From the NCBI GenBank assembly GCA_035630455.1, contig DASQKP010000031.1, positions 21,429 through 85,428 on the forward strand: a stretch of DNA of 64,000 bases, given 5' to 3'. Made by a program: the position numbers and the translations under genes. The DNA comes from Thermoleophilaceae bacterium. Lineage in GTDB: Bacteria > Actinomycetota > Thermoleophilia > Solirubrobacterales > Thermoleophilaceae. Below, one piece after another: positions 8,835 to 26,894 of the stretch (positions are counted from its first letter, which is position 1; the number at the start of each line of letters is the position of its first letter). The notes under the pieces were generated by a model, which did not search any database, was not told where the DNA came from, and was given only the letters and a program-made list of their open reading frames with translations.

Positions 8835-10201
8835 CGGCGGGTTCCGATCTCGTGCGCGCCGCTGGCGAGACCGCTGCCCGGGCTGGGTCCGACGATCTCC
8901 AGCCGGGTTCCCCAGGGATCTTCGAAGTAAGCCGCCTGCCAGCCGTGGAGTGGGTGCTGCGGGTCCTCCACGTCGATCGGCTCGACGACGAACCGGACCC
9001 CCGCCGCCGCCAGCCGCTGGTGCACCTCGCGCACGTCGCGCACGCCGAACGAGACGTGGTCGAGGCCCGGGTCCACGATTGTCCGCCGGGTGGTGGCGTC
9101 GTCGTCGCCGCGCGGCTGATGAAGCCACAGCTCGATCCGGCTGCCGCCTGGGCAGAGCAGCTGCACGACCCCCCCGGTCGCGTCCTCCAGTCCGGTCACG
9201 GCTGTGAGGAAGCCACCTTCCAGGGCGTGGCGCCAATCCTCCTCGAGACCGAGGATGTCCCGGTAGAACCGCAGGCCGGCCTCAATGTCGGGCACCTCGA
9301 TCGCGATGTGCGACCCGATGCCCGAGACCCAGTCTCCGTCGAGGCCGGTGGCGAGCGGCCCGCCCGTGGCGGGTTTGCCCTCGACGCGCGCGAGGAACGG
9401 GCGCAGCCGCGCCACGCAGTCCCGCCAGTGCGACAGCACGACACCGTGGAAGGCGCCCGAGACGAACGCGAGCTCGCCCCGAGGAGCCGCCGCGGCGAGC
9501 GCCTCGGCGTTCGACGGATCGACGAACGGGCTGCGCTCCGGCGAGATCACCAGCAGCGGCGCCTGCAGCTTTCCGACCGCGTCGGAGAGGTCGACTCCCA
9601 TCAGGCAGATGGCGATCCCGGTGACCACGCGCGGGTCGATGTTCCGCTGGCGGGCGGCCAGCCACTCCGCGATCGCCGGATCGACGTCGGGCCCAAGGCG
9701 GCCACTGACGATCTCCTCGACCCAGGTCGTCATGCCCTCCTCGGTGGCAACGAGGTCAGGCCAGTGCGCGATGTTGGCGATCCGCGTCCCGTCGAACGCC
9801 GTCGAGCAGGTCGTGACCGACCGCACCCGCGCCGGGTTCGCCGCGGCGAAGGCGAGGCCGATAGTCCCGCCGAACGACTCGCCGACAAAGTGGAAGGCGT
9901 CGACGCCGGCGGCGTCGAGCACGCGCTCGAGATCGTCGACGAAGCGCTCGAACGGGTAGCCGTCGGCCGACCACGCGGCGGCCGACTCGCCGTGGCCGCG
10001 CAGGTCGATGGCGAGCACGGGCCGGTCGGCCGCGACGGCCGCGATCCAGGGGCGCCACACGTCGAGCGACAGCCCGAGGCCGTGCAGGAAGACGATCGGA
10101 GTCGCGTCCGGGGCCCACGGCGGGCGCAGGTCTACGGTCGCGAAGGCCAGCTCGTCGCCGTCGACGTCGATCGTCTGGCGATCCAGCGGTTGCGCCGTCA
10201 T
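8831..10201 (-). CDS. Fusion protein: N-terminal alpha/beta-hydrolase (enol-lactonase/MCP-hydrolase-like) plus C-terminal VOC (glyoxalase/extradiol dioxygenase-fold) domain
   Basis: ATG 10201 (ATGA overlap with the ATPase stop). The N-terminal half has IVFLHGLGLSLDVWRPW, LRGHGES and the nucleophile elbow GESFGG. The C-terminal ~150 aa has HIAIEVPDIEAGLRFYRDILGL, LDHVSFGV and YFEDPWGTRLEI, i.e. the paired beta-alpha-beta-beta-beta modules with His/His/Glu ligand positions. Confidence 0.8.
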   Translation of the reverse strand: MTAQPLDRQTIDVDGDELAFATVDLRPPWAPDATPIVFLHGLGLSLDVWRPWIAAVAADRPVLAIDLRGHGESAAAWSADGYPFERFVDDLERVLDAAGVDAFHFVGESFGGTIGLAFAAANPARVRSVTTCSTAFDGTRIANIAHWPDLVATEEGMTTWVEEIVSGRLGPDVDPAIAEWLAARQRNIDPRVVTGIAICLMGVDLSDAVGKLQAPLLVISPERSPFVDPSNAEALAAAAPRGELAFVSGAFHGVVLSHWRDCVARLRPFLARVEGKPATGGPLATGLDGDWVSGIGSHIAIEVPDIEAGLRFYRDILGLEEDWRHALEGGFLTAVTGLEDATGGVVQLLCPGGSRIELWLHQPRGDDDATTRRTIVDPGLDHVSFGVRDVREVHQRLAAAGVRFVVEPIDVEDPQHPLHGWQAAYFEDPWGTRLEIVGPSPGSGLASGAHEIGTRR

Positions 10202-19974: not shown

Positions 19975-20244
19975 TCAGGCGGCGGAACGGCGGGCGAAGC
20001 GCTCGCGACGCTTCGCGGCCTCCTCGTCGCGGTCCTTCGGCGGGGCGTTGCTCACCAGTCCGTCGAGCAGCGTCCGCGTGGCCGCGGTGACCTCCTCGAC
20101 CGCACGATCGAACGCCTCCTGATTGGCCTTCGACGGCTTGGTCGAGCCGCTGATCTTGCGGACGTACTGCAACGCCGCGTCGTGGACCTCGTCCTCGTTC
20201 GCGGGTGGCTCGAAGTTATGCAGGGTTCGGATGTTTCGGCACAT
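19975..20244 (-). CDS. DUF2277-family small protein
   Basis: ORF trimmed to ATG 20244. MCRNIRTLHNFEPPANEDEVHDAALQYVRKISGSTKPSKANQEAFDRAV matches my recollection of the conserved actinobacterial MCRNIRTLHNFEPPAT... family. Confidence 0.7.
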   Translation of the reverse strand: MCRNIRTLHNFEPPANEDEVHDAALQYVRKISGSTKPSKANQEAFDRAVEEVTAATRTLLDGLVSNAPPKDRDEEAAKRRERFARRSAA

Positions 20245-20281
20245 GTCACTGAGCGTAGTGGCAACGCCTATCTTGGAGGGG

Positions 20282-21757
20282 GTGCATGCACGCGCCAAAG
20301 TCAGCGCGTTCGCGATCACCGTCCTGACGGTGATGCTGATCGCCGCGACCCCCGCCTTTGGCGCCGCCGCCCATGACGGCTGGGGATTCGCGGTCGCCGA
20401 CGACGACTGGGAGTGGGACGACCCGGGCTATCTCCCGTCGCTGGAGGACGAGTTCGCCGCCCTCGGGCCGAAGGCCTTTCGCTTCCAGATGATCTGGAAC
20501 GCGGCCGACCTTCCATGGCACCTCGACCGAGCGCGGGGAATCATCGCTCGCGCCAGAGCCCAAGGCGTAGAGCAGATCGTCGTGACGTTCAAGCGGAGCG
20601 TGGGCTCCGATACCGACCCCGTCTACGGCGTCAAGCCCACCGCGGAGGGCTACACCGAGCACGTCAGCGAGGTCGTGCGCCTGCTCGCCGACGACGTCGA
20701 CGTCTGGGGACCCGCCAACGAGCCCAATCGCGGTGAGACGTGGCTGCCGGGGGTGTCGGGAGCGCAACTGCTGGCGGGGTACTACGCGGGTCTGGAGGAC
20801 GCGGTCGCCACCTGGGACCCGACGGCGGCGACCACCTCCCCCGACTTCGTCGACCGCGCCGACCTGGGGACGATCGCCAACTACGTCAACCCGTACGAGA
20901 ACGCCGGCGGCGGCTGGGGCGACCATGTCGCCATCCACCCGTACGCGGGGGCGTACAACGAGACCACCAGCACGACGCTCGACATCATCGGCCTAGCGCC
21001 ACCGGGAGCGAGCGTCTGGGTCACCGAGGTCGGCGCCTTCGGCAGGAGCCAGCGCGGAATCGAGGCCTCCGAGACGTCCCAGAACGACACGGTCTGGTGG
21101 CTCGCGACGATCCTGGCGGAGCTGCCCCAAGTCGAGCGGATCCACTACTACCACATGCGCGGAAACCCCCAAGCCGCTTGGGATACCGGCCTGCTGAACG
21201 TCGACCGCGGCAAGCGAATCGCCTGGCACACCTGGTGCGCCATGGCCCACGGCGACCTGGAGCACGCCGCCTGCCAACCGGTGACACGGCGGTCGGTCGT
21301 GCCGTCGCCGCTCGATCCGTCACTGCCCGACCCCCCTCTCGCCGGGCCGGCCAGCGCGACCGCGGGCCCACCCCAGCCCGACTGCCCGTACGCGCTCACC
21401 TGCGCTGCCCCGCCACCCGACCGCACGCCTCCCACGCTGACCATCGACCGTCGCAACAGGCTCGGCTACGACGACTTCATGAACGGCTTCGCCTTCCGCG
21501 TGCGGCCAAGCGAGCGCAGCGCTCTGAAGATCGAGGTCCTCGTCCGCCTACGCCGCGCGGGCGATAGCCCTCGCCGTTACGTGACCGTGGCGAAGAAGAG
21601 CCTTGCGGCAGCCGACGGCTCGCACGTCGTCCGGCTCAAACCGCGACACCGGGCGCTCAGCGGACGACACCGATTCCTCGCCCGCCTGCGGGTGCACGCC
21701 ACCGATCTCGAGGGCAACCGCGGGACAGCGACCAAGCTGCTCCGCGTCAGTCGATAG
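20282..21757 (+). CDS. Secreted clan GH-A (TIM-barrel) glycoside hydrolase-like protein with a basic C-terminal module
   Basis: GTG 20282 follows GGAGGG. Signal peptide ...IAATPAFGAAAHD. Acid/base-type motif WGPANEPN and nucleophile-type motif VWVTEVGAF. Pro-rich linker, then an Arg-rich C-terminal module. ATG 20243 is an alternative start. Confidence 0.7.
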   Translation: MHARAKVSAFAITVLTVMLIAATPAFGAAAHDGWGFAVADDDWEWDDPGYLPSLEDEFAALGPKAFRFQMIWNAADLPWHLDRARGIIARARAQGVEQIVVTFKRSVGSDTDPVYGVKPTAEGYTEHVSEVVRLLADDVDVWGPANEPNRGETWLPGVSGAQLLAGYYAGLEDAVATWDPTAATTSPDFVDRADLGTIANYVNPYENAGGGWGDHVAIHPYAGAYNETTSTTLDIIGLAPPGASVWVTEVGAFGRSQRGIEASETSQNDTVWWLATILAELPQVERIHYYHMRGNPQAAWDTGLLNVDRGKRIAWHTWCAMAHGDLEHAACQPVTRRSVVPSPLDPSLPDPPLAGPASATAGPPQPDCPYALTCAAPPPDRTPPTLTIDRRNRLGYDDFMNGFAFRVRPSERSALKIEVLVRLRRAGDSPRRYVTVAKKSLAAADGSHVVRLKPRHRALSGRHRFLARLRVHATDLEGNRGTATKLLRVSR

Positions 21758-23074
21758 TCACTCCACCAGCCGCACCTCGAAGGCGGCGCTGGTGAGGTCG
21801 CCGGCGCCGTCGAGGAGGCCGAGTATCTTGGCGACGTAGGCCTGGGTCTCGGGGTAGTCGGGAATGCAGCCGCAGGCGGCGACGGGCGCCGGGCCGGCGT
21901 TGTAGGCGGCGAGGGCGAGCGGGACGGAGGCGAACTGGCGCAGCAGGTCGTGCATCAGGTGGGCCTGGGCATCGATCGCGGCCTTGGGATCGAAGGGGTT
22001 GGAGAGGCCGTAGCTGGCCGCCGTCCCCGGCATGAACTGGGCGATTCCCTGGGCGCCCGCCGGTGAGCTCGCGAAAGGGTTGAAGTTGGACTCTGCGTAG
22101 AGCTGGGCCGAGAGAACGGCGGCACCGACGTTCCAGCGCTGGGAGGCCCGCGAGATGGCGTCGGCGAACTGGGGCGGGACGAACGACGGGATCGCGGAGC
22201 GGCCGTCGCGGATCTTGGCGCCGTAGCCGACCGAGGCGGAGCCGGCCGCGCGAACGTAGCCGTAGTGCCAGGGCTCCCAGCTGTACCTCTGCACGAACCC
22301 GAAGCGCTGGGCGTTCGCCGCGAGCCATCCGTAGGCGGCATTCGGCCCCAGGTCCAGCTCGGTTCCGAGGCGGTGAAGACTCTTGCCGGGTGGGGCAACC
22401 CAGCGGGGATCTGGGTTCGCGGCGAACAGGGCCGCTTGCTCGGCGTCGGAACGGAAGCCGCTGACCACGATCAGAGAGAGGCCGTCAGAGAGCGCGGCCG
22501 CCGCCATGCGGTCGAAGGCCATCGCCACATCGGGCCTCATCGGCTTCCCACCTCGGTAGGCCAGCGGACCCGAGTAGCCGCCACCGCTCGCCATCGTCGG
22601 CATCGCGGCTCCGCCACCTAGTGGCGCCAGCTCGGCGGTGGCGCTCGCCTCGACCGCGACGCGCCGTTTGCGCGCCCCATCCTTGACCCGGACGTCGACC
22701 GTCCCGCGTGTCCGCACCCGGACCCGTGTCGGCGCGAAGCCTCCGCCCGGAAACGTGACGTCGGTCAGTCCGAGCCGGACGCCGTTGCGCTCGCCGGCGC
22801 GGACCGCCGCCGAGCGGGCGCGAGCGAGGTACTCGAGCGTCGACAGGTGGTGCGGATTCGGCAGGCCGTTCGGGAGCGTGACCGGCTCGAACAGCCGGAA
22901 GTAATCGTCGCTCATGCGGTGCGCGGCCGAGACGGCCGCCAGGTCGGCGGCGCGCTGGTGGCGGGACTTGCCGCCGAGCGCCTGACCGAAGGCGACGAGG
23001 ACGAGCGTCCCGACGAGCGCCGCCGCGACGACGCCGAGCATCAGCAACAGCGCCTGGCCGCGCTCGCTCCTCAC
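21758..23074 (-). CDS. Three-part fusion: TadG-like N-terminal anchor, VanY/M15 D-Ala-D-Ala carboxypeptidase domain, and SLT lytic transglycosylase domain
   Basis: The N-terminus MRSERGQALLLMLGVVAAALVG...RHQRAADLAAVSAAHRM resembles the TadE/G-like Flp-pilus assembly N-terminus. M15 zinc motifs SLHRLGTELD and EPWHYGY. SLT motifs YAESNF, GIAQFMPGTA and AYNAGP. Confidence 0.8.
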   Translation of the reverse strand: MRSERGQALLLMLGVVAAALVGTLVLVAFGQALGGKSRHQRAADLAAVSAAHRMSDDYFRLFEPVTLPNGLPNPHHLSTLEYLARARSAAVRAGERNGVRLGLTDVTFPGGGFAPTRVRVRTRGTVDVRVKDGARKRRVAVEASATAELAPLGGGAAMPTMASGGGYSGPLAYRGGKPMRPDVAMAFDRMAAAALSDGLSLIVVSGFRSDAEQAALFAANPDPRWVAPPGKSLHRLGTELDLGPNAAYGWLAANAQRFGFVQRYSWEPWHYGYVRAAGSASVGYGAKIRDGRSAIPSFVPPQFADAISRASQRWNVGAAVLSAQLYAESNFNPFASSPAGAQGIAQFMPGTAASYGLSNPFDPKAAIDAQAHLMHDLLRQFASVPLALAAYNAGPAPVAACGCIPDYPETQAYVAKILGLLDGAGDLTSAAFEVRLVE

Positions 23075-23772
23075 GGCGCGACCGCCACGAGGTCGGCGAG
23101 CTGGGCGACGCGGCGGCCCAGCTCACCGCGGGCCTCACGACCGGCGAGCGCGAGCTGCGCGCCCATCCGGGCGTCGGGCAGGCGCAGGGCGCAGCGGGCG
23201 TCCCAGCGCTCGTCGGCGTCGCGGTCGCGATTCAGGACGACGACCGGCTCGGGACCGACGCGGCACAGGGACTCTGCGAGAACGGAGGCGAGCGCCGGCT
23301 CCGTCCCGGGACCCGCGACGAGGACCACGGCGTCGACGAGCGACGCGGCGACCGACGTCCCCGCCGCGTCGGCCACATCGAGAACCAGCGGGGCGAGATC
23401 GCGGGCGGCATCGACGAACGCCGCGTGGTCGGGACCGGCGACCGTCAGGCAGATCCGCCCGACCGCGCGCGTCTGCGACGGCAGCGAACGCTGGACCGCC
23501 CGGCCAAGGCGCCCGGCCGCTGGCGTCCCCAGCGGGATCCCACCGCCGGCAACGGTCTCGGTGCTGACGATCGCCGCTCCGCCGTCGTCGCGCAGCGCCA
23601 GCTCGGCCGCCAGCGCCCGCGCCACGGTCGTGGTCCCGCAGCGCGGCGCCAGTCCCGCCACGGCGACCACGGGTCGCGCCATCCGTTTCCAGGCCCGGTC
23701 GGCCTCGGCGCTCGCCGGCTCCAGCGGCTCGACGAGGAAATCGGCGACCGTCGACAGCAGTCCGCCCCTCAT
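23071..23772 (-). CDS. Hypothetical protein with a degenerate MinD/ParA/CpaE(TadZ)-like P-loop
   Basis: VVAVAGLAPRCGTTTVARALAAELA aligns to the deviant Walker A (xKGGxGKTT) but lacks both lysines. Walker B-like LVLDVAD. 4-nt overlaps on both sides. Confidence 0.5.
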   Translation of the reverse strand: MRGGLLSTVADFLVEPLEPASAEADRAWKRMARPVVAVAGLAPRCGTTTVARALAAELALRDDGGAAIVSTETVAGGGIPLGTPAAGRLGRAVQRSLPSQTRAVGRICLTVAGPDHAAFVDAARDLAPLVLDVADAAGTSVAASLVDAVVLVAGPGTEPALASVLAESLCRVGPEPVVVLNRDRDADERWDARCALRLPDARMGAQLALAGREARGELGRRVAQLADLVAVAP

Positions 23773-24110
23773 GGCAGCTCCACCGCCGCCTCGGCGCGGA
23801 CCTCGAGCTTGCGCGCGACGAGCTTCAGCGGCGACGGCGGGCGCAGCCGCACGCCCACCGTCCCGCCGCTCACTTCAACCCGAGCCTGTGCTTGCGACCA
23901 GCCCGGCAGCGCGTGCTTCACGGCCGCCCGCGCGTCTCCCCCACCCGCCAGCGCGAGCGCGCCTGCCTCGGCGGCGGTGCCCGCCAGCACGGCCGAGTAG
24001 CCGACGGCCAGCAACTGCATCAAGACCAGCCCGACCACCAGCAGCACCGGCAGCGCCGCCACCACCTCGACCAGAGCCTGCCCGCGCTCAGAGCCCAGAT
24101 CGCCGTTCAC
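23769..24110 (-). CDS. TadE-like (Flp pilus minor pseudopilin-like) protein
   Basis: 113 aa. N-terminus SERGQALVEVVAALPVLLVVGLVLMQ is the TadE-like motif (ERGQA.VE...LP.LL). Confidence 0.75.
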   Translation of the reverse strand: MNGDLGSERGQALVEVVAALPVLLVVGLVLMQLLAVGYSAVLAGTAAEAGALALAGGGDARAAVKHALPGWSQAQARVEVSGGTVGVRLRPPSPLKLVARKLEVRAEAAVELP

Positions 24111-24460
24111 GACCCGTCCCCGAGCGACGCCGTCGCCCCGACCGCCACCGGCAGCCGCCAGCGGTGCAGCAGCAGCGGCAGCTCCACGCTGACCGCCACC
24201 CGCCCGTCGCGACGCTCGACCTCGAGACCGGGCTCCAGCCCCGCCGGCAGCACGGAGCGGACGGCCGCCTTCACGTCACCGTCGACCACCTCCGCCCGTG
24301 CCCCGGCGCGCGCGGCATGGGCCGCGAGCCACGCCGTATGACCGGCGAGCGCGCACTGCCAGACGAGCGCGCCCACCAGCAAGACGAACGGCAACGCGGC
24401 CACCAGCTCGACGCTCGACTGCCCCTGTTCGGACCGCCCGAGGCGGCGTAGAAAGCTCAT
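24107..24460 (-). CDS. TadE-like (Flp pilus minor pseudopilin-like) protein
   Basis: 117 aa. N-terminus SEQGQSSVELVAALPFVLLVGALVWQ is the TadE-like motif. Confidence 0.75.
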   Translation of the reverse strand: MSFLRRLGRSEQGQSSVELVAALPFVLLVGALVWQCALAGHTAWLAAHAARAGARAEVVDGDVKAAVRSVLPAGLEPGLEVERRDGRVAVSVELPLLLHRWRLPVAVGATASLGDGS

Positions 24461-24517
24461 GCCACCGACCGTCTCAGCGGCCGTGAGACGGGAAAACCCC
24501 GCTCTGTTACAGCACTG

Positions 24518-25693
24518 CTACGTGCGTGTTACAGCTCGACGCCCCTTGAGCAGGATCGCCACGCCGAGCACGGCGCTGGCGATCGAGCCGGCGAAGATGC
24601 CGAACTTGGCGGTGTCGATCGTCAGCGGGTCGCTGTACGCCAGCTGCGCGATGAACAGCGAGACGGTGAAGCCGATTCCGCCGAGCGCGGCGATCCCCCA
24701 GACGTGCTGGGCACGCACACCCTCTGGAAGCTTGCCGATCCCGAGCCGAGCGACGAGCAGGATCGTGCCGGCGATCCCGAGCAGCTTGCCGAGCACCAGG
24801 CCGATCGCGATCGCCCAGGCGATCCGGCTCTCCGCGGCGGCCGAGATCGTCGAGCTGTCGAGCACGATGCCGGCGTTCGCCAGCGCGAACAGCGGGATGA
24901 CCAGGAAGCTGCTGAACGGGTGCAGCCGATCCTCGACCTCCTCGAGCACCTGGCGGCCGTCGATCGGACGGGCTGGCATCAGCAGCCCGACCGCGACCCC
25001 GGCGATCGTCGCGTGGACACCCGACTCCAGCATCGCGACCCAGACGAAGATGCCGAGCGGCACATAGGCGATCACCCGCCGCACTCCCAGCGCCCGCATC
25101 GCGACGATCGCCGCCAGGCCCGCCACGACGGCCGCCAGCCAGGCCAGCGAGATCCCCGAGCTGTAGAAGATCGCGATCACCGCGATCGCGACCACGTCGT
25201 CGACGACGGCGATCGTCAACAGCAGCAGCTTCACTCCCGCCGGGATGCGGTCGCCCAGCAGCGCCAGCACGCCGACGGCGAACGCGATGTCGGTCGCCGT
25301 CGGGATCGCCCAGCCGCTCGCGCCCTCGCCACCGAGCGTCAGCAGCGCGAAGATGATCGCCGGCAGCGCCGCCCCGCCAAGCGCGGCGAGCACCGGAACC
25401 GTCGCGGTCCGGCGGTCGCGCAGGTCGCCCGTCACGAACTCGCGCTTGACCTCGAGCGCGACGACGAAGAAGAACAACGCCATCAGCCCGTCGTTGACCC
25501 AGTGCTGGAGGTCCTCGGTGATCGACAGCGAGCCGACACCGAGAGTCAGCTCCGTATGCCAGAAGGACAGGTAGCTGCCGCCGAGGTTCGCCCAGACCAG
25601 CGCCACCGCGGTGGCGACGAGCAGGACGACCCCGCCGGTCGTCTCGTCGTGGAGGTACTCGGTCGCGGCGTCGATGTTCTCGCGGACGCTCAC
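24518..25693 (-). CDS. nhaA: Na+/H+ antiporter NhaA
   Basis: 391 aa. DLQHWVNDGLMALFFFVVALEVKRE and ...PLFALANAG are hallmark NhaA motifs. GTG start. Confidence 0.92.
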   Translation of the reverse strand: MSVRENIDAATEYLHDETTGGVVLLVATAVALVWANLGGSYLSFWHTELTLGVGSLSITEDLQHWVNDGLMALFFFVVALEVKREFVTGDLRDRRTATVPVLAALGGAALPAIIFALLTLGGEGASGWAIPTATDIAFAVGVLALLGDRIPAGVKLLLLTIAVVDDVVAIAVIAIFYSSGISLAWLAAVVAGLAAIVAMRALGVRRVIAYVPLGIFVWVAMLESGVHATIAGVAVGLLMPARPIDGRQVLEEVEDRLHPFSSFLVIPLFALANAGIVLDSSTISAAAESRIAWAIAIGLVLGKLLGIAGTILLVARLGIGKLPEGVRAQHVWGIAALGGIGFTVSLFIAQLAYSDPLTIDTAKFGIFAGSIASAVLGVAILLKGRRAVTRT

Positions 25694-26050
25694 TCAGTCG
25701 TACGCGCGGTACTGAGTCCAGACCCAGTAGACCCCATACGAGCAGGCGCCGAGCAGCGCGAGCCAGACCACGACACCGGCGCCGCCGACGTCGAACAGCC
25801 TGTTGGTCGCGCAGAAGGTCAGGAACGCCAGCCCGATCGAGCCGTAGAGCACCGCCCGATTGGCGTCCGGCAGCCCCTCCAGATCCATCCGGAACTGACG
25901 GAACAGGCGGTAGCCAAGCATCGCGATCGCCGTGAAGAAGGCGATCGAGAGGGCGGTGAGCAGCAGGTTGAGCGCGTTGTCGCCGCCTGGCAGCCCGGTC
26001 AGCAGCAGCGCCACCAGCGCGATCAGGCCGAACTTCCAGAACAGGCTCAC
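25694..26050 (-). CDS. Small integral membrane protein, unknown function
   Basis: 118 aa with four hydrophobic segments. Abuts the nhaA start with no gap. GTG start. Confidence 0.6.
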   Translation of the reverse strand: MSLFWKFGLIALVALLLTGLPGGDNALNLLLTALSIAFFTAIAMLGYRLFRQFRMDLEGLPDANRAVLYGSIGLAFLTFCATNRLFDVGGAGVVVWLALLGACSYGVYWVWTQYRAYD

Positions 26051-26060
26051 GGCCCCGATC

Positions 26061-26894
26061 CTAGCCCGGCGACTGGATCGCGCCGGTGGCCGTCAGCGCC
26101 AGCACCAGGACGCCGAGCACCACCCGGTAGCCGACGAACAGCCGCACCGAGTGGGTCGTCAGGTAGCGCAGCAGCCAGGCGATCGCCGCGTAGCCGACGA
26201 AGAACGCGATCACAGTCGCCAGCAGGATGTAGCCGAGCGGCTCGCCGTTGCCCTCCTCGCCCGACAGGACGCTCGCGAGCTGGAACAGGCCGCTCAGCAC
26301 GACCGCCGGGATCGCCAGCAGGAACGAGAAGCGCGCCGCGGCCGTGCGGTCGAGGCCCAGCAGCAGGCCCGCGCTCATCGTCGCGCCCGAGCGCGACACG
26401 CCGGGGATCAGCGCCAGCGACTGCGCCAGGCCGATCAGGATGCCGTCGCGCGTCGAGATCTGGCCCAGCTCGCGCTCGTGGGTGCCGACTCGATCGGCGT
26501 AGCCGAGCACCAGGCCGAAGACGATCAGCACCGTCCCGACCAAATACAGGTCGCGCGCGCCGTTCTCGATCTGGGTCTCGAACGTCAGGCCGAGCAGGCC
26601 GATCGGGATCGTCGCGACGATCAGATACCAGCCCATCCGCGCGTGCACGGTCGAGCGCAGCACCGGCCGGTAGAGCGAGCGCAGCCACACCGTCGCGATC
26701 GACCAGATGTCGTTGCGGAAGTAGATGAGCACCGCCGCCTCGGTGCCCAGCTGCGTCACGGCGGTGAACGCCGCCCCCGGGTCCTCCCAGCCGAGCATCG
26801 CCGGGACGATCAGCTGGTGGGCGCTGGAGGAGATCGGCAGGAACTCGGTGAGCCCCTGCAGGATGCCCAGCACTATGGCCTCGATCAGCGACAC
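26061..26894 (-). CDS. uppP: Undecaprenyl-diphosphate phosphatase
   Basis: MSLIEAIVLGILQGLTEFLPISSSAH and PGVSRSGATM are the BacA/UppP signature motifs. Confidence 0.92.
   Translation of the reverse strand: MSLIEAIVLGILQGLTEFLPISSSAHQLIVPAMLGWEDPGAAFTAVTQLGTEAAVLIYFRNDIWSIATVWLRSLYRPVLRSTVHARMGWYLIVATIPIGLLGLTFETQIENGARDLYLVGTVLIVFGLVLGYADRVGTHERELGQISTRDGILIGLAQSLALIPGVSRSGATMSAGLLLGLDRTAAARFSFLLAIPAVVLSGLFQLASVLSGEEGNGEPLGYILLATVIAFFVGYAAIAWLLRYLTTHSVRLFVGYRVVLGVLVLALTATGAIQSPG

Follow-up and report, generated by a model that had tools for sequence, protein, structure and literature searches.

Among the open questions listed for type IV pili is how they pass through the wall of a monoderm bacterium (PMC6916266). 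Machines that span the envelope usually depend on a dedicated peptidoglycan-opening enzyme, and for Tad pili no peptidoglycan hydrolase has been reported so far (2025 paper; PMC12307814). A candidate is offered by a gene of a Thermoleophilaceae bacterium, a soil actinobacterium of the class Thermoleophilia. The stretch of DNA analysed here, named as the window, comprises 64,000 nucleotides of contig DASQKP010000031.1 (assembly GCA_035630455.1, positions 21,429 to 85,428), and its minus strand encodes a tri-domain protein, hereafter the hydrolase, in which a TadG/TadF-like anchor is followed by a pilin-like module, a VanY (M15B) domain and an SLT domain. The gene was found to be the last of four minus-strand genes whose neighbouring stops and starts overlap by 4 nt, and the other three encode two TadE-type prepilins and a protein confidently predicted to have a ParA/MinD fold. 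In the reading that we favour, with about even confidence, the hydrolase would be a bifunctional cutter of peptidoglycan, built on a Tad minor-pilin module, anchored in the membrane and positioned there, and it would open the thick wall either for a type IVc filament or as one of its parts; we infer its link to a pilus from the partners of the gene, and the opening of the wall for such a filament is its probable role. The gene and its parts are as follows.

21758-23074, minus strand: gene of the tri-domain hydrolase, 438 aa with a GTG start (open reading frame and translation, Pfam, NCBIfam)
22973-23062, minus strand: N-terminal hydrophobic helix, aa 5-34 (Pfam Tad, NCBIfam, AlphaFold2)
22622-22921, minus strand: predicted membrane-proximal pilin-like globular module, aa 52-151 (AlphaFold2)
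22253-22540, minus strand: VanY / MEROPS M15B zinc-peptidase domain, aa 179-274 (Pfam, PDB sequence and fold matches)
21881-22159, minus strand: SLT family-1 lytic transglycosylase domain, aa 306-398 (Pfam, PDB 9b45 and 1qsa, PHROG)

The three Pfam domains of the protein all scored above their gathering scores, namely Tad PF13400 at aa 6-51 (23.4 bits against 22.3, E 7.7e-5), VanY PF02557 at aa 179-274 (65.3 bits against 25, E 6e-18) and SLT PF01464 at aa 306-398 (68.7 bits against 21.3, E 4e-19). An earlier note on this DNA had claimed this three-part architecture, and both the architecture and the borders it gave (1-60, 165-270 and 300-420) agree closely with the Pfam result. The motifs that it quoted were also found in the domains to which it had assigned them: SLHRLGTELD at aa 232-241, EPWHYGY at 267-273, YAESNF at 326-331, GIAQFMPGTA at 343-352 and AYNAGP at 390-395. 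The VanY domain carries the zinc/catalytic motif S232-L-H234-R-L-G-T-E-L-D241, with Glu where the family form S-x-H-x-x-G-x-A-x-D has Ala, the second motif E-x-x-H as E267-P-W-H270, and R208-S209...Q213; the H, D, E and H of the two motifs align to PDB 5hnm. The SLT domain carries E328-S329, G343-I-A-Q346 and A390-Y-N-A-G394. When a loss of catalytic residues from both enzymes was checked by alignment, the residues were found intact, as H234, D241, E267 and H270 of the VanY domain and E328-S329, G343-Q346 and Y391-G394 of the SLT domain are invariant in alignments A1 and A3, which hold relatives down to 43% identity. A gene on the plus strand at 21758-23074 was ruled out by internal stops in the plus-strand translation.

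The relatives of the two enzymatic domains suggest what they would cleave. The PDB sequence relatives of the protein were VanY 5hnm, LdcB-type 4mph, Slt70 1qsa and 9b45, the last of which, the SLT module of a phage tape-measure protein, was the best match; the SLT domain also matched PHROG lytic tail and endolysin families. VanY and LdcB models of NCBIfam matched the middle part, and MltF, Slt and flagellar lytic transglycosylase models matched the C-terminus. The SLT domain is predicted to cleave glycan strands, and the M15B domain is predicted to remove the terminal residues of stem peptides or to cut the stem peptides. The M15B domain shares the fold family and the H-x6-D and E-x-x-H motifs of VanY/LdcB enzymes (5hnm, 4mph, 4ox3), with 32-33% identity over ~130 residues, and it differs from them in its setting, as those enzymes stand alone, with or without a signal anchor, whereas here the domain lies between the pilin-like module and the SLT domain. 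Sequence does not fix its specificity, since VanY enzymes (D,D) and LdcB enzymes (L,D) are related to it to the same degree; the name 'D,D-carboxypeptidase' given earlier went too far, being a family name only in a family, M15B, that also holds L,D-carboxypeptidases, and a D,D-carboxypeptidase is what the domain may be.

The gene order of the operon is t117, t113, p233 and the hydrolase, and t113 overlaps each neighbouring gene by 4 nt. The first two genes are:

24107-24460, minus strand: t117, TadE-type minor prepilin, 117 aa, leader ...SEQG↓QSSVE with Glu at +5
23769-24110, minus strand: t113, TadE-type minor prepilin, 113 aa, leader ...SERG↓QALVE with Glu at +5

The arrow stands before position +1. 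The t117 protein matched Pfam TadE PF07811 at 25.1 bits against a gathering score of 22.9, and both proteins matched the NCBIfam model NF041390 (TadE_Rv3655c) below threshold, t117 over the full model length and t113 over profile positions 1-97 of 101 (E 1.2e-4). A class-III signal site, written ...G↓Q-(A/S)-(S/T)-V-E, is common to them. The G↓xxxxE site was kept in all of the ~56 orthologues of t113 examined and in ~57 orthologues of t117, with a single exception that has Ser at +5 (L023; the labels L and P denote related loci and database proteins, respectively), and Gly-1 was kept in all orthologues examined of both. The conservation of Gly-1 and Glu+5 is a strong sign, read from sequence, that a prepilin peptidase and type IV filament machinery would act on these two proteins. 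In addition, a perfect 8-bp inverted repeat, CCGTCTCA/TGAGACGG, lies on the minus strand at 24469-24491, just before the start codon in the 57-nt spacer between nhaA and t117; its folding energy was not significant against shuffles (z = -1.6).

The tri-domain architecture is that of a class-wide, clade-restricted and uncharacterised family in Thermoleophilia and no singleton. A word-indexed search returned more than 120 clusters at an identity of at least 69%, all with VanY and SLT and some with Tad also called, from Thermoleophilaceae/Actinomycetota metagenome bins, and an exhaustive search of 50%-identity representatives returned 300 proteins at E <= 1e-30, of which the top 150 were all relatives or fragments of the same family. 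When GTDB contigs were searched with one genome per species, each of the 80 listed loci matched the protein over most of its length or in full, with 55-90% identity; these were drawn from 577 candidate stretches, the rest of which may match the SLT domain only. They span Thermoleophilaceae, Solirubrobacterales and Conexibacteraceae and include the cultured carriers Conexibacter arvalis and Solirubrobacter deserti, and the order of the cassette was kept across Thermoleophilaceae, Solirubrobacterales and Conexibacter. The earlier description of the architecture as unusual holds outside the Thermoleophilia clade and fails within the class, where it is the normal arrangement and keeps one chromosomal location. 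The converse idea that it is common and already annotated was also half right, as it is common within Thermoleophilia, yet its annotation is generic, the database names being at most 'transglycosylase SLT domain-containing protein'. No relevant paper on the architecture, or on Tad systems in Thermoleophilia, turned up in literature searches, and the supplement of a type IV filament census has no Conexibacter or Thermoleophilia entries (PMC6668835). A phage origin of the architecture was rejected, as the relatives on viral contigs are SLT-only; the matches of two exceptions, L084 and L125, begin at base 13 and base 1, respectively, cut by the contig end, and these may be host DNA. Five representatives (P0162, P0166, P0197, P0210 and P0235) turn part-way into an Arg/Ala-rich wrong-frame sequence. 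Frameshifts in the assembly or wrong gene calls, in contigs of high GC content, are the probable cause, and these proteins make the family look more diverse than it is.

The third gene of the operon ties the hydrolase to the cytoplasm.

23071-23772, minus strand: p233, partner protein, 233 aa, its stop overlapping the hydrolase start by 4 nt

The p233 protein had no match in Pfam or NCBIfam and no significant match in a PDB profile search, and its 704 relatives are all named 'hypothetical'; it is an unannotated protein family in its own right. Its AlphaFold2 model had a predicted local distance difference test score (pLDDT) of 86.7 and a predicted template modelling score of 0.83, and a Foldseek search with this model put ParA, MinD, Soj, BcsQ and FlhG on top with a probability of 1.0 (3ea0, 1hyq, 2bek and 6yay, E 9e-8 to 1e-5, template modelling score 0.5-0.57). 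On this model, a ParA/MinD fold is confidently predicted. The P-loop GLAPRCGTTT aligns with KGGVGKTT of Soj and keeps the conserved G46, T48 and T49; both lysines are gone, so that it does not conform to the deviant Walker A form K-G-G-x-x-G-K-[ST], and p233 may be a pseudo-ATPase. It resembles the ParA/MinD class including TadZ/CpaE in its predicted fold and in holding the 'tadZ-like' slot of a Tad-type gene set, and differs from this class in the missing P-loop lysines and in having no sequence-level family match. It also has no receiver-like N-terminal domain, and in 17 loci its counterpart is fused to the hydrolase anchor.

An iterated profile placed a p233-like domain, separate or fused, upstream of the hydrolase in 75 of 83 loci, and in 17 of these 75 it was fused in frame before the anchor helix of the hydrolase (L017, L019, L022, L023, L025, L026, L031, L032, L033, L044, L048, L049, L051, L057, L062, L067 and L075; at about 9000-10060 in most of them). 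These fusions fall in a subset of Solirubrobacterales genomes, and the same fusion was seen in the database proteins P0122, P0125, P0127, P0129 and P0137. The p233 protein and the fused domain share a C-terminal motif (window 'LALAGREARGELGRR' against 'RRALAGLEPGGATGRR'), and therefore the fused domain is a homologue of p233. Such in-frame fusions are a Rosetta-stone link, from which it is very likely that p233 and the hydrolase work together. The fusion also fixes the topology, with the ParA-like part in the cytoplasm and the enzymes outside, and it makes the anchor helix probably an uncleaved transmembrane anchor, at least in the fused lineages. One full-length fused member (L062, CAWFLS010000002.1; 58% identity, same cassette) comes from a bin labelled 'uncultured Chloroflexia bacterium', which is probably a mislabelled Thermoleophilia bin. 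Separately, the Solirubrobacterales loci L038, L042, L047, L054 and L073 have an extra 500-700 nt between the p233-like gene and the hydrolase (about 9450-10000), within which lies a conserved open stretch (...SSVHRF.SF.G..C..Y...); this may be an additional small gene.

The N-terminal part of the hydrolase was modelled with confidence over aa 1-151, as a helix at aa 5-34 and then an alpha/beta module. Two helices and a beta-hairpin/sheet make up the module (aa 52-151), whose blocks mostly have a pLDDT of 63-94; it contains the conserved motif QRAADLAAVSAA (alignments A1 and A3) and is confidently predicted from the model to be pilin-like. The nearest NCBIfam model for the N-terminus was TIGR03816 (Rv3654c family, tadF of M. 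tuberculosis), which matched aa 4-56 at 24.4 against 50.95 bits. The TadG/TadE-like N-terminus seen earlier has thus become a TadG/TadF-type helix followed by a predicted pilin-like alpha/beta module. Before the helix, an E-x-G-Q-A motif was conserved in 70 loci, fused forms included. The residue at +5 after the Gly was L in 50 of them, A in 11, M in 4, V in 2, and I, P and S in one each. A missing Glu5 is a hallmark of the tip-most minor pseudopilins of the GspK type, and therefore a pilin role can still be entertained for the hydrolase; the N-terminus may instead be a simple transmembrane anchor. Of the 'pseudopilin-type anchor' proposed at the outset, the Tad-like helix stands, and the absence of Glu+5 and the cytoplasmic domain fused before the helix in 17 loci speak against the rest. 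The hydrolase can only partially be counted as a Tad minor pilin, with the profile match and the TadE linkage in place and Glu+5 and tad-core linkage lacking.

These observations can be assembled into the following mechanism. The hydrolase would be a single-pass membrane protein (N-in, C-out) that holds both enzymes outside the membrane on a TadG/TadF-type module. The three pilin-like proteins would join via their N-terminal helices into a membrane-proximal minor-pilin complex; by analogy, they probably form a complex, as TadE/F/G-like minor pilins do, where the largest subunit bears a variable exposed domain (PMC12075869). This complex would hold the enzymatic head in the thick wall of a presumably monoderm actinobacterium, and the ParA-like protein at the inner membrane face, covalently fused in some lineages, would position or gate it. 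The transglycosylase would open the glycan mesh locally, and the M15B peptidase would trim terminal residues of neighbouring stem peptides, or cut these peptides, so that the gap is widened or does not re-cross-link; trimming the donor pentapeptides beside the glycan cut would block re-cross-linking. The outcome would be a gap through which a type IVc (Tad-like) filament can pass, and the genes of its motor would lie elsewhere in the genome. The M. tuberculosis locus has the order tadZ-A-B-C-flp-tadE-tadF (PMC9531140), and by comparison the cassette would correspond to the accessory half of an actinobacterial tad locus (tadZ-class, tadE, tadE, tadF/G).

The known systems resemble parts of this arrangement. 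VirB1-like bifunctional hydrolases of Gram-positive conjugation, namely PrgK (pCF10), TraG (pIP501), CwlT (ICEBs1) and TcpG (pCW3), are thought to open the thick wall locally for an envelope-spanning machine. Like them, the tri-domain protein combines a membrane anchor, an enzyme for the glycan and an enzyme for the peptide in a single chain, a likeness that is an architectural analogy only. Their peptidase is CHAP, NlpC/P60 or LytM whereas here it is M15B/VanY, they are encoded in conjugation clusters on mobile elements whereas this gene is chromosomal with class-wide synteny, and the pilin-type anchor and the TadE-type prepilin neighbours set the tri-domain protein further apart; homology was not seen outside the SLT domain. 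The PrgK/TraG/CwlT type would be its nearest functional analogue, with the tri-domain protein outside that group by peptidase family and setting. Dedicated lytic transglycosylases are known for flagella (FlgJ/SltF), type III secretion (EtgA/IpgF), type IV secretion (VirB1) and Caulobacter pili and flagellum (PleA). They share with it the family-1 SLT domain, the E-S motif and the presumed local gap made for a machine; they are soluble or lipoprotein, single-activity enzymes of diderms, whereas in this presumed monoderm a peptidase and a pilin-like anchor share one chain with the SLT domain. The TadG/TadF minor pilins (M. tuberculosis Rv3654c, Myxococcus KilN-type tip pilin) share the hydrophobic N-terminal helix and the Pfam Tad and TIGR03816 matches; the hydrolase gene comes after TadE-type genes as in the M. 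tuberculosis tad locus, and its product is the largest of three pilin-like proteins with an extra exposed domain as in Tad tip complexes. The differences from TadG/TadF are the appended domains, two peptidoglycan hydrolases, which are unreported for Tad systems, the lack of Glu+5, the cytoplasmic domain before the helix in some lineages, and the lack of linked tadA/B/C/flp in the scanned regions, where tadB/C were not searched for specifically. The fused variants resemble SCO4439 of Streptomyces coelicolor, which has a cytoplasmic domain, a transmembrane segment and an extracellular VanY-type domain; its cytoplasmic part is a transcriptional-regulator domain, and it has no SLT domain, pilin-like module or TadE neighbours (PMC4751497). 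The hydrolase family adds to two known kinds of protein, the machine-dedicated wall hydrolases and the modular pilin-like proteins, and modular pilins to which many domains have been appended occur widely (PMC6916266).

Several observations weigh against a filament-linked hydrolase. The Tad-type assignment of the anchor stands ~1 bit over threshold in Pfam and below threshold in NCBIfam, Glu+5 is absent from the anchor in all 70 loci even as Gly-Gln is kept, and the fused forms have ~200 residues before the anchor, unlike any known prepilin leader. The AlphaFold2 model of the hydrolase, built on a 30-sequence alignment with identity of at least 71%, had an overall pLDDT of 52.6 with low confidence in the enzymatic domains because the alignment was shallow; a fold search with it gave weak VanY/LdcB matches only, because these domains were modelled at low confidence, and matched nothing to the pilin-like module. 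Neither the 64-kb window nor the 10 kb around the gene in any of the 83 loci showed a TadA-type ATPase Walker A; the regex scan picked up nothing but ABC-transporter ATPases in the window, with PstB and RapZ in addition in the loci, and tadB/C and prepilin peptidase were not searched for specifically in these regions. A prepilin-site scan of the window gave only t117 and t113 and no Flp-like site. In the scanned regions, the hydrolase gene thus has no tad locus (tadZ/A/B/C, flp) around or beside it and only TadE-like and ParA-fold genes linked to it, and in L005, L010, L011, L013, L053 and L056 it is detached from the cassette. The surroundings of the cassette are housekeeping genes (bacA or pstSCAB-phoU upstream, uvrC-rapZ-gap-pgk-tpi downstream), and its class-wide presence, which appears universal, fits a core cell-wall role equally well. 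The interpretation as a tool for an assembly site is therefore partly supported. It gained from the operon, where translational coupling ties the hydrolase to the two TadE-type prepilins and to a protein of predicted ParA/MinD fold, at a time when no Tad hydrolase is reported, and it lost from the absence of a motor nearby, the assumed specificity and the commonness in the clade.

The same facts have to be weighed under other explanations. The hydrolase may be a housekeeping enzyme of wall remodelling or daughter-cell separation, placed or controlled at the septum or pole by the ParA/MinD-like protein, with Tad-like scaffolds co-opted and no pilus; this would be a cytoplasmic control of an extracellular hydrolase as exerted by other cytoplasmic regulators, and we regard it as possible though clearly short of probable. 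It would account for the fixed chromosomal place by bacA/pst and uvrC-rapZ-gap-pgk-tpi across the class, the presence of the hydrolase at full or near-full length in every listed species genome (80), the missing motor, and the positioning proteins MinD, FlhG and BcsQ among the fold matches of p233, and the fusion of a cytoplasmic domain to the anchor resembles SCO4439, which acts in spore-wall maturation (PMC4751497). The strict Glu+5 prepilin sites of t117 and t113 are hard to explain on these terms without type IV machinery, and all four cassette proteins match accessory Tad components (tadZ-class fold, tadE, tadE, tadF/G), as compared with M. tuberculosis. A glycopeptide-resistance or precursor-trimming VanY, which removes terminal D-Ala and has its SLT domain as an incidental part, was considered because the best NCBIfam models for aa 181-280 are VanY-A/F/M and VanY-B/G and the best peptidase match is the VanB-type VanY of PDB 5hnm. 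The scores are far under the model cut-offs (31 against 425 bits), the neighbourhood has no vanH/A/X or vanR/S genes, and an intact SLT domain and a Tad-type anchor accompany the M15B domain in one chain in every case; vancomycin resistance was rejected on the NCBIfam scores and gene context, and the whole idea is highly improbable.

Two further explanations keep the filament and differ in where the enzymes would sit. A hydrolase cleaved at G6↓Q7 and displayed tip-most on the pilus with the TadE-like pilins, as a self-drilling device that the growing filament takes through the cell's own wall or a contact-dependent lytic weapon against neighbouring cells, is unlikely in our view. It draws on the E-x-G-Q-A motif conserved in 70 loci, fused forms too, on the absent Glu5, and on the SLT module being closest to phage tail/tape-measure lytic modules, which act from outside; Tad tip complexes, made of TadE/F/G-like proteins of which the largest bears a variable exposed domain, serve contact-dependent killing in Myxococcus (PMC12075869), and the wide occurrence of modular pilins with appended domains also agrees with it (PMC6916266). 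It would demand an unprecedented cleavage of a ~200-residue leader in the fused forms, no major pilin or motor gene is linked within the scanned regions, the cassette has no immunity-like gene, and the universal, syntenic, single-copy distribution differs from the variable tip and effector sets of predators. A bolder version of the favoured reading, which we put forward tentatively and with considerable doubt, is that t117, t113 and the hydrolase form a priming/tip complex whose enzymatic head is a pilin-borne 'drill' through the cell's own wall, placed by the degenerate ParA-like partner. If so, a peptidoglycan hydrolase would for the first time be part of a type IV filament subunit, Tad pili would gain their first assigned wall-opening enzyme, and the passage of a type IV filament through a monoderm wall would have a concrete explanation.

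On the favoured reading of a positioned cutter for a type IVc filament, the hydrolase becomes a candidate for the enzyme, missing until now, that opens the wall for Tad-type pili, and the family is a testable one as its class has cultured species (Conexibacter arvalis, Solirubrobacter deserti). Even without the pilus link, two things would be new, namely the repeated fusion, across the membrane, of a ParA-like pseudo-ATPase with a wall hydrolase of two activities, which would amount to a new way of controlling where the wall is cleaved, and the p233 family, which at present is without any annotation.

The cassette is accompanied by a small membrane protein gene:

25694-26050, minus strand: m118, hydrophobic and apparently multi-pass membrane protein, 118 aa

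The m118 protein had no Pfam or NCBIfam match. By tblastn, it was found upstream of t117 in most of the 83 loci, mostly about 100-250 nt off, and the order m118, t117, t113, p233-like gene and hydrolase was kept in most of these loci. An nhaA antiporter gene (24518-25693 in the window) lies between m118 and t117 in the window and L001, and m118 directly adjoins t117 in L003 with no nhaA between. Just upstream of the cassette, at 26061-26894 on the minus strand, is the gene of BacA/UppP, an undecaprenyl-diphosphatase of wall-precursor recycling, which is also found in L001 and L003; in other orders, pstSCAB-phoU takes the place of bacA as upstream neighbour. The Thermoleophilaceae locus L005 (5102-5863 and 9965-11287) has, besides the hydrolase gene, a second and truncated copy of its N-terminal part, 253 aa, about 4 kb upstream, with TetR and ABC-transporter genes between the copies and no TadE or p233 genes nearby, which looks like a rearrangement or duplication. 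On the other side of the hydrolase, a convergent plus-strand open reading frame (20123-21757) encodes a 544-aa protein with a hydrophobic N-terminal stretch and a weak sub-threshold Glyco_hydro_cc match; it ends at 21757 and abuts the 3' end of the hydrolase gene at 21758 with zero intergenic space. The same convergent arrangement was seen in L001 and L002 (486 aa), and in L003 the equivalent convergent gene (489 aa) is split from the hydrolase by an extra 271-aa gene.

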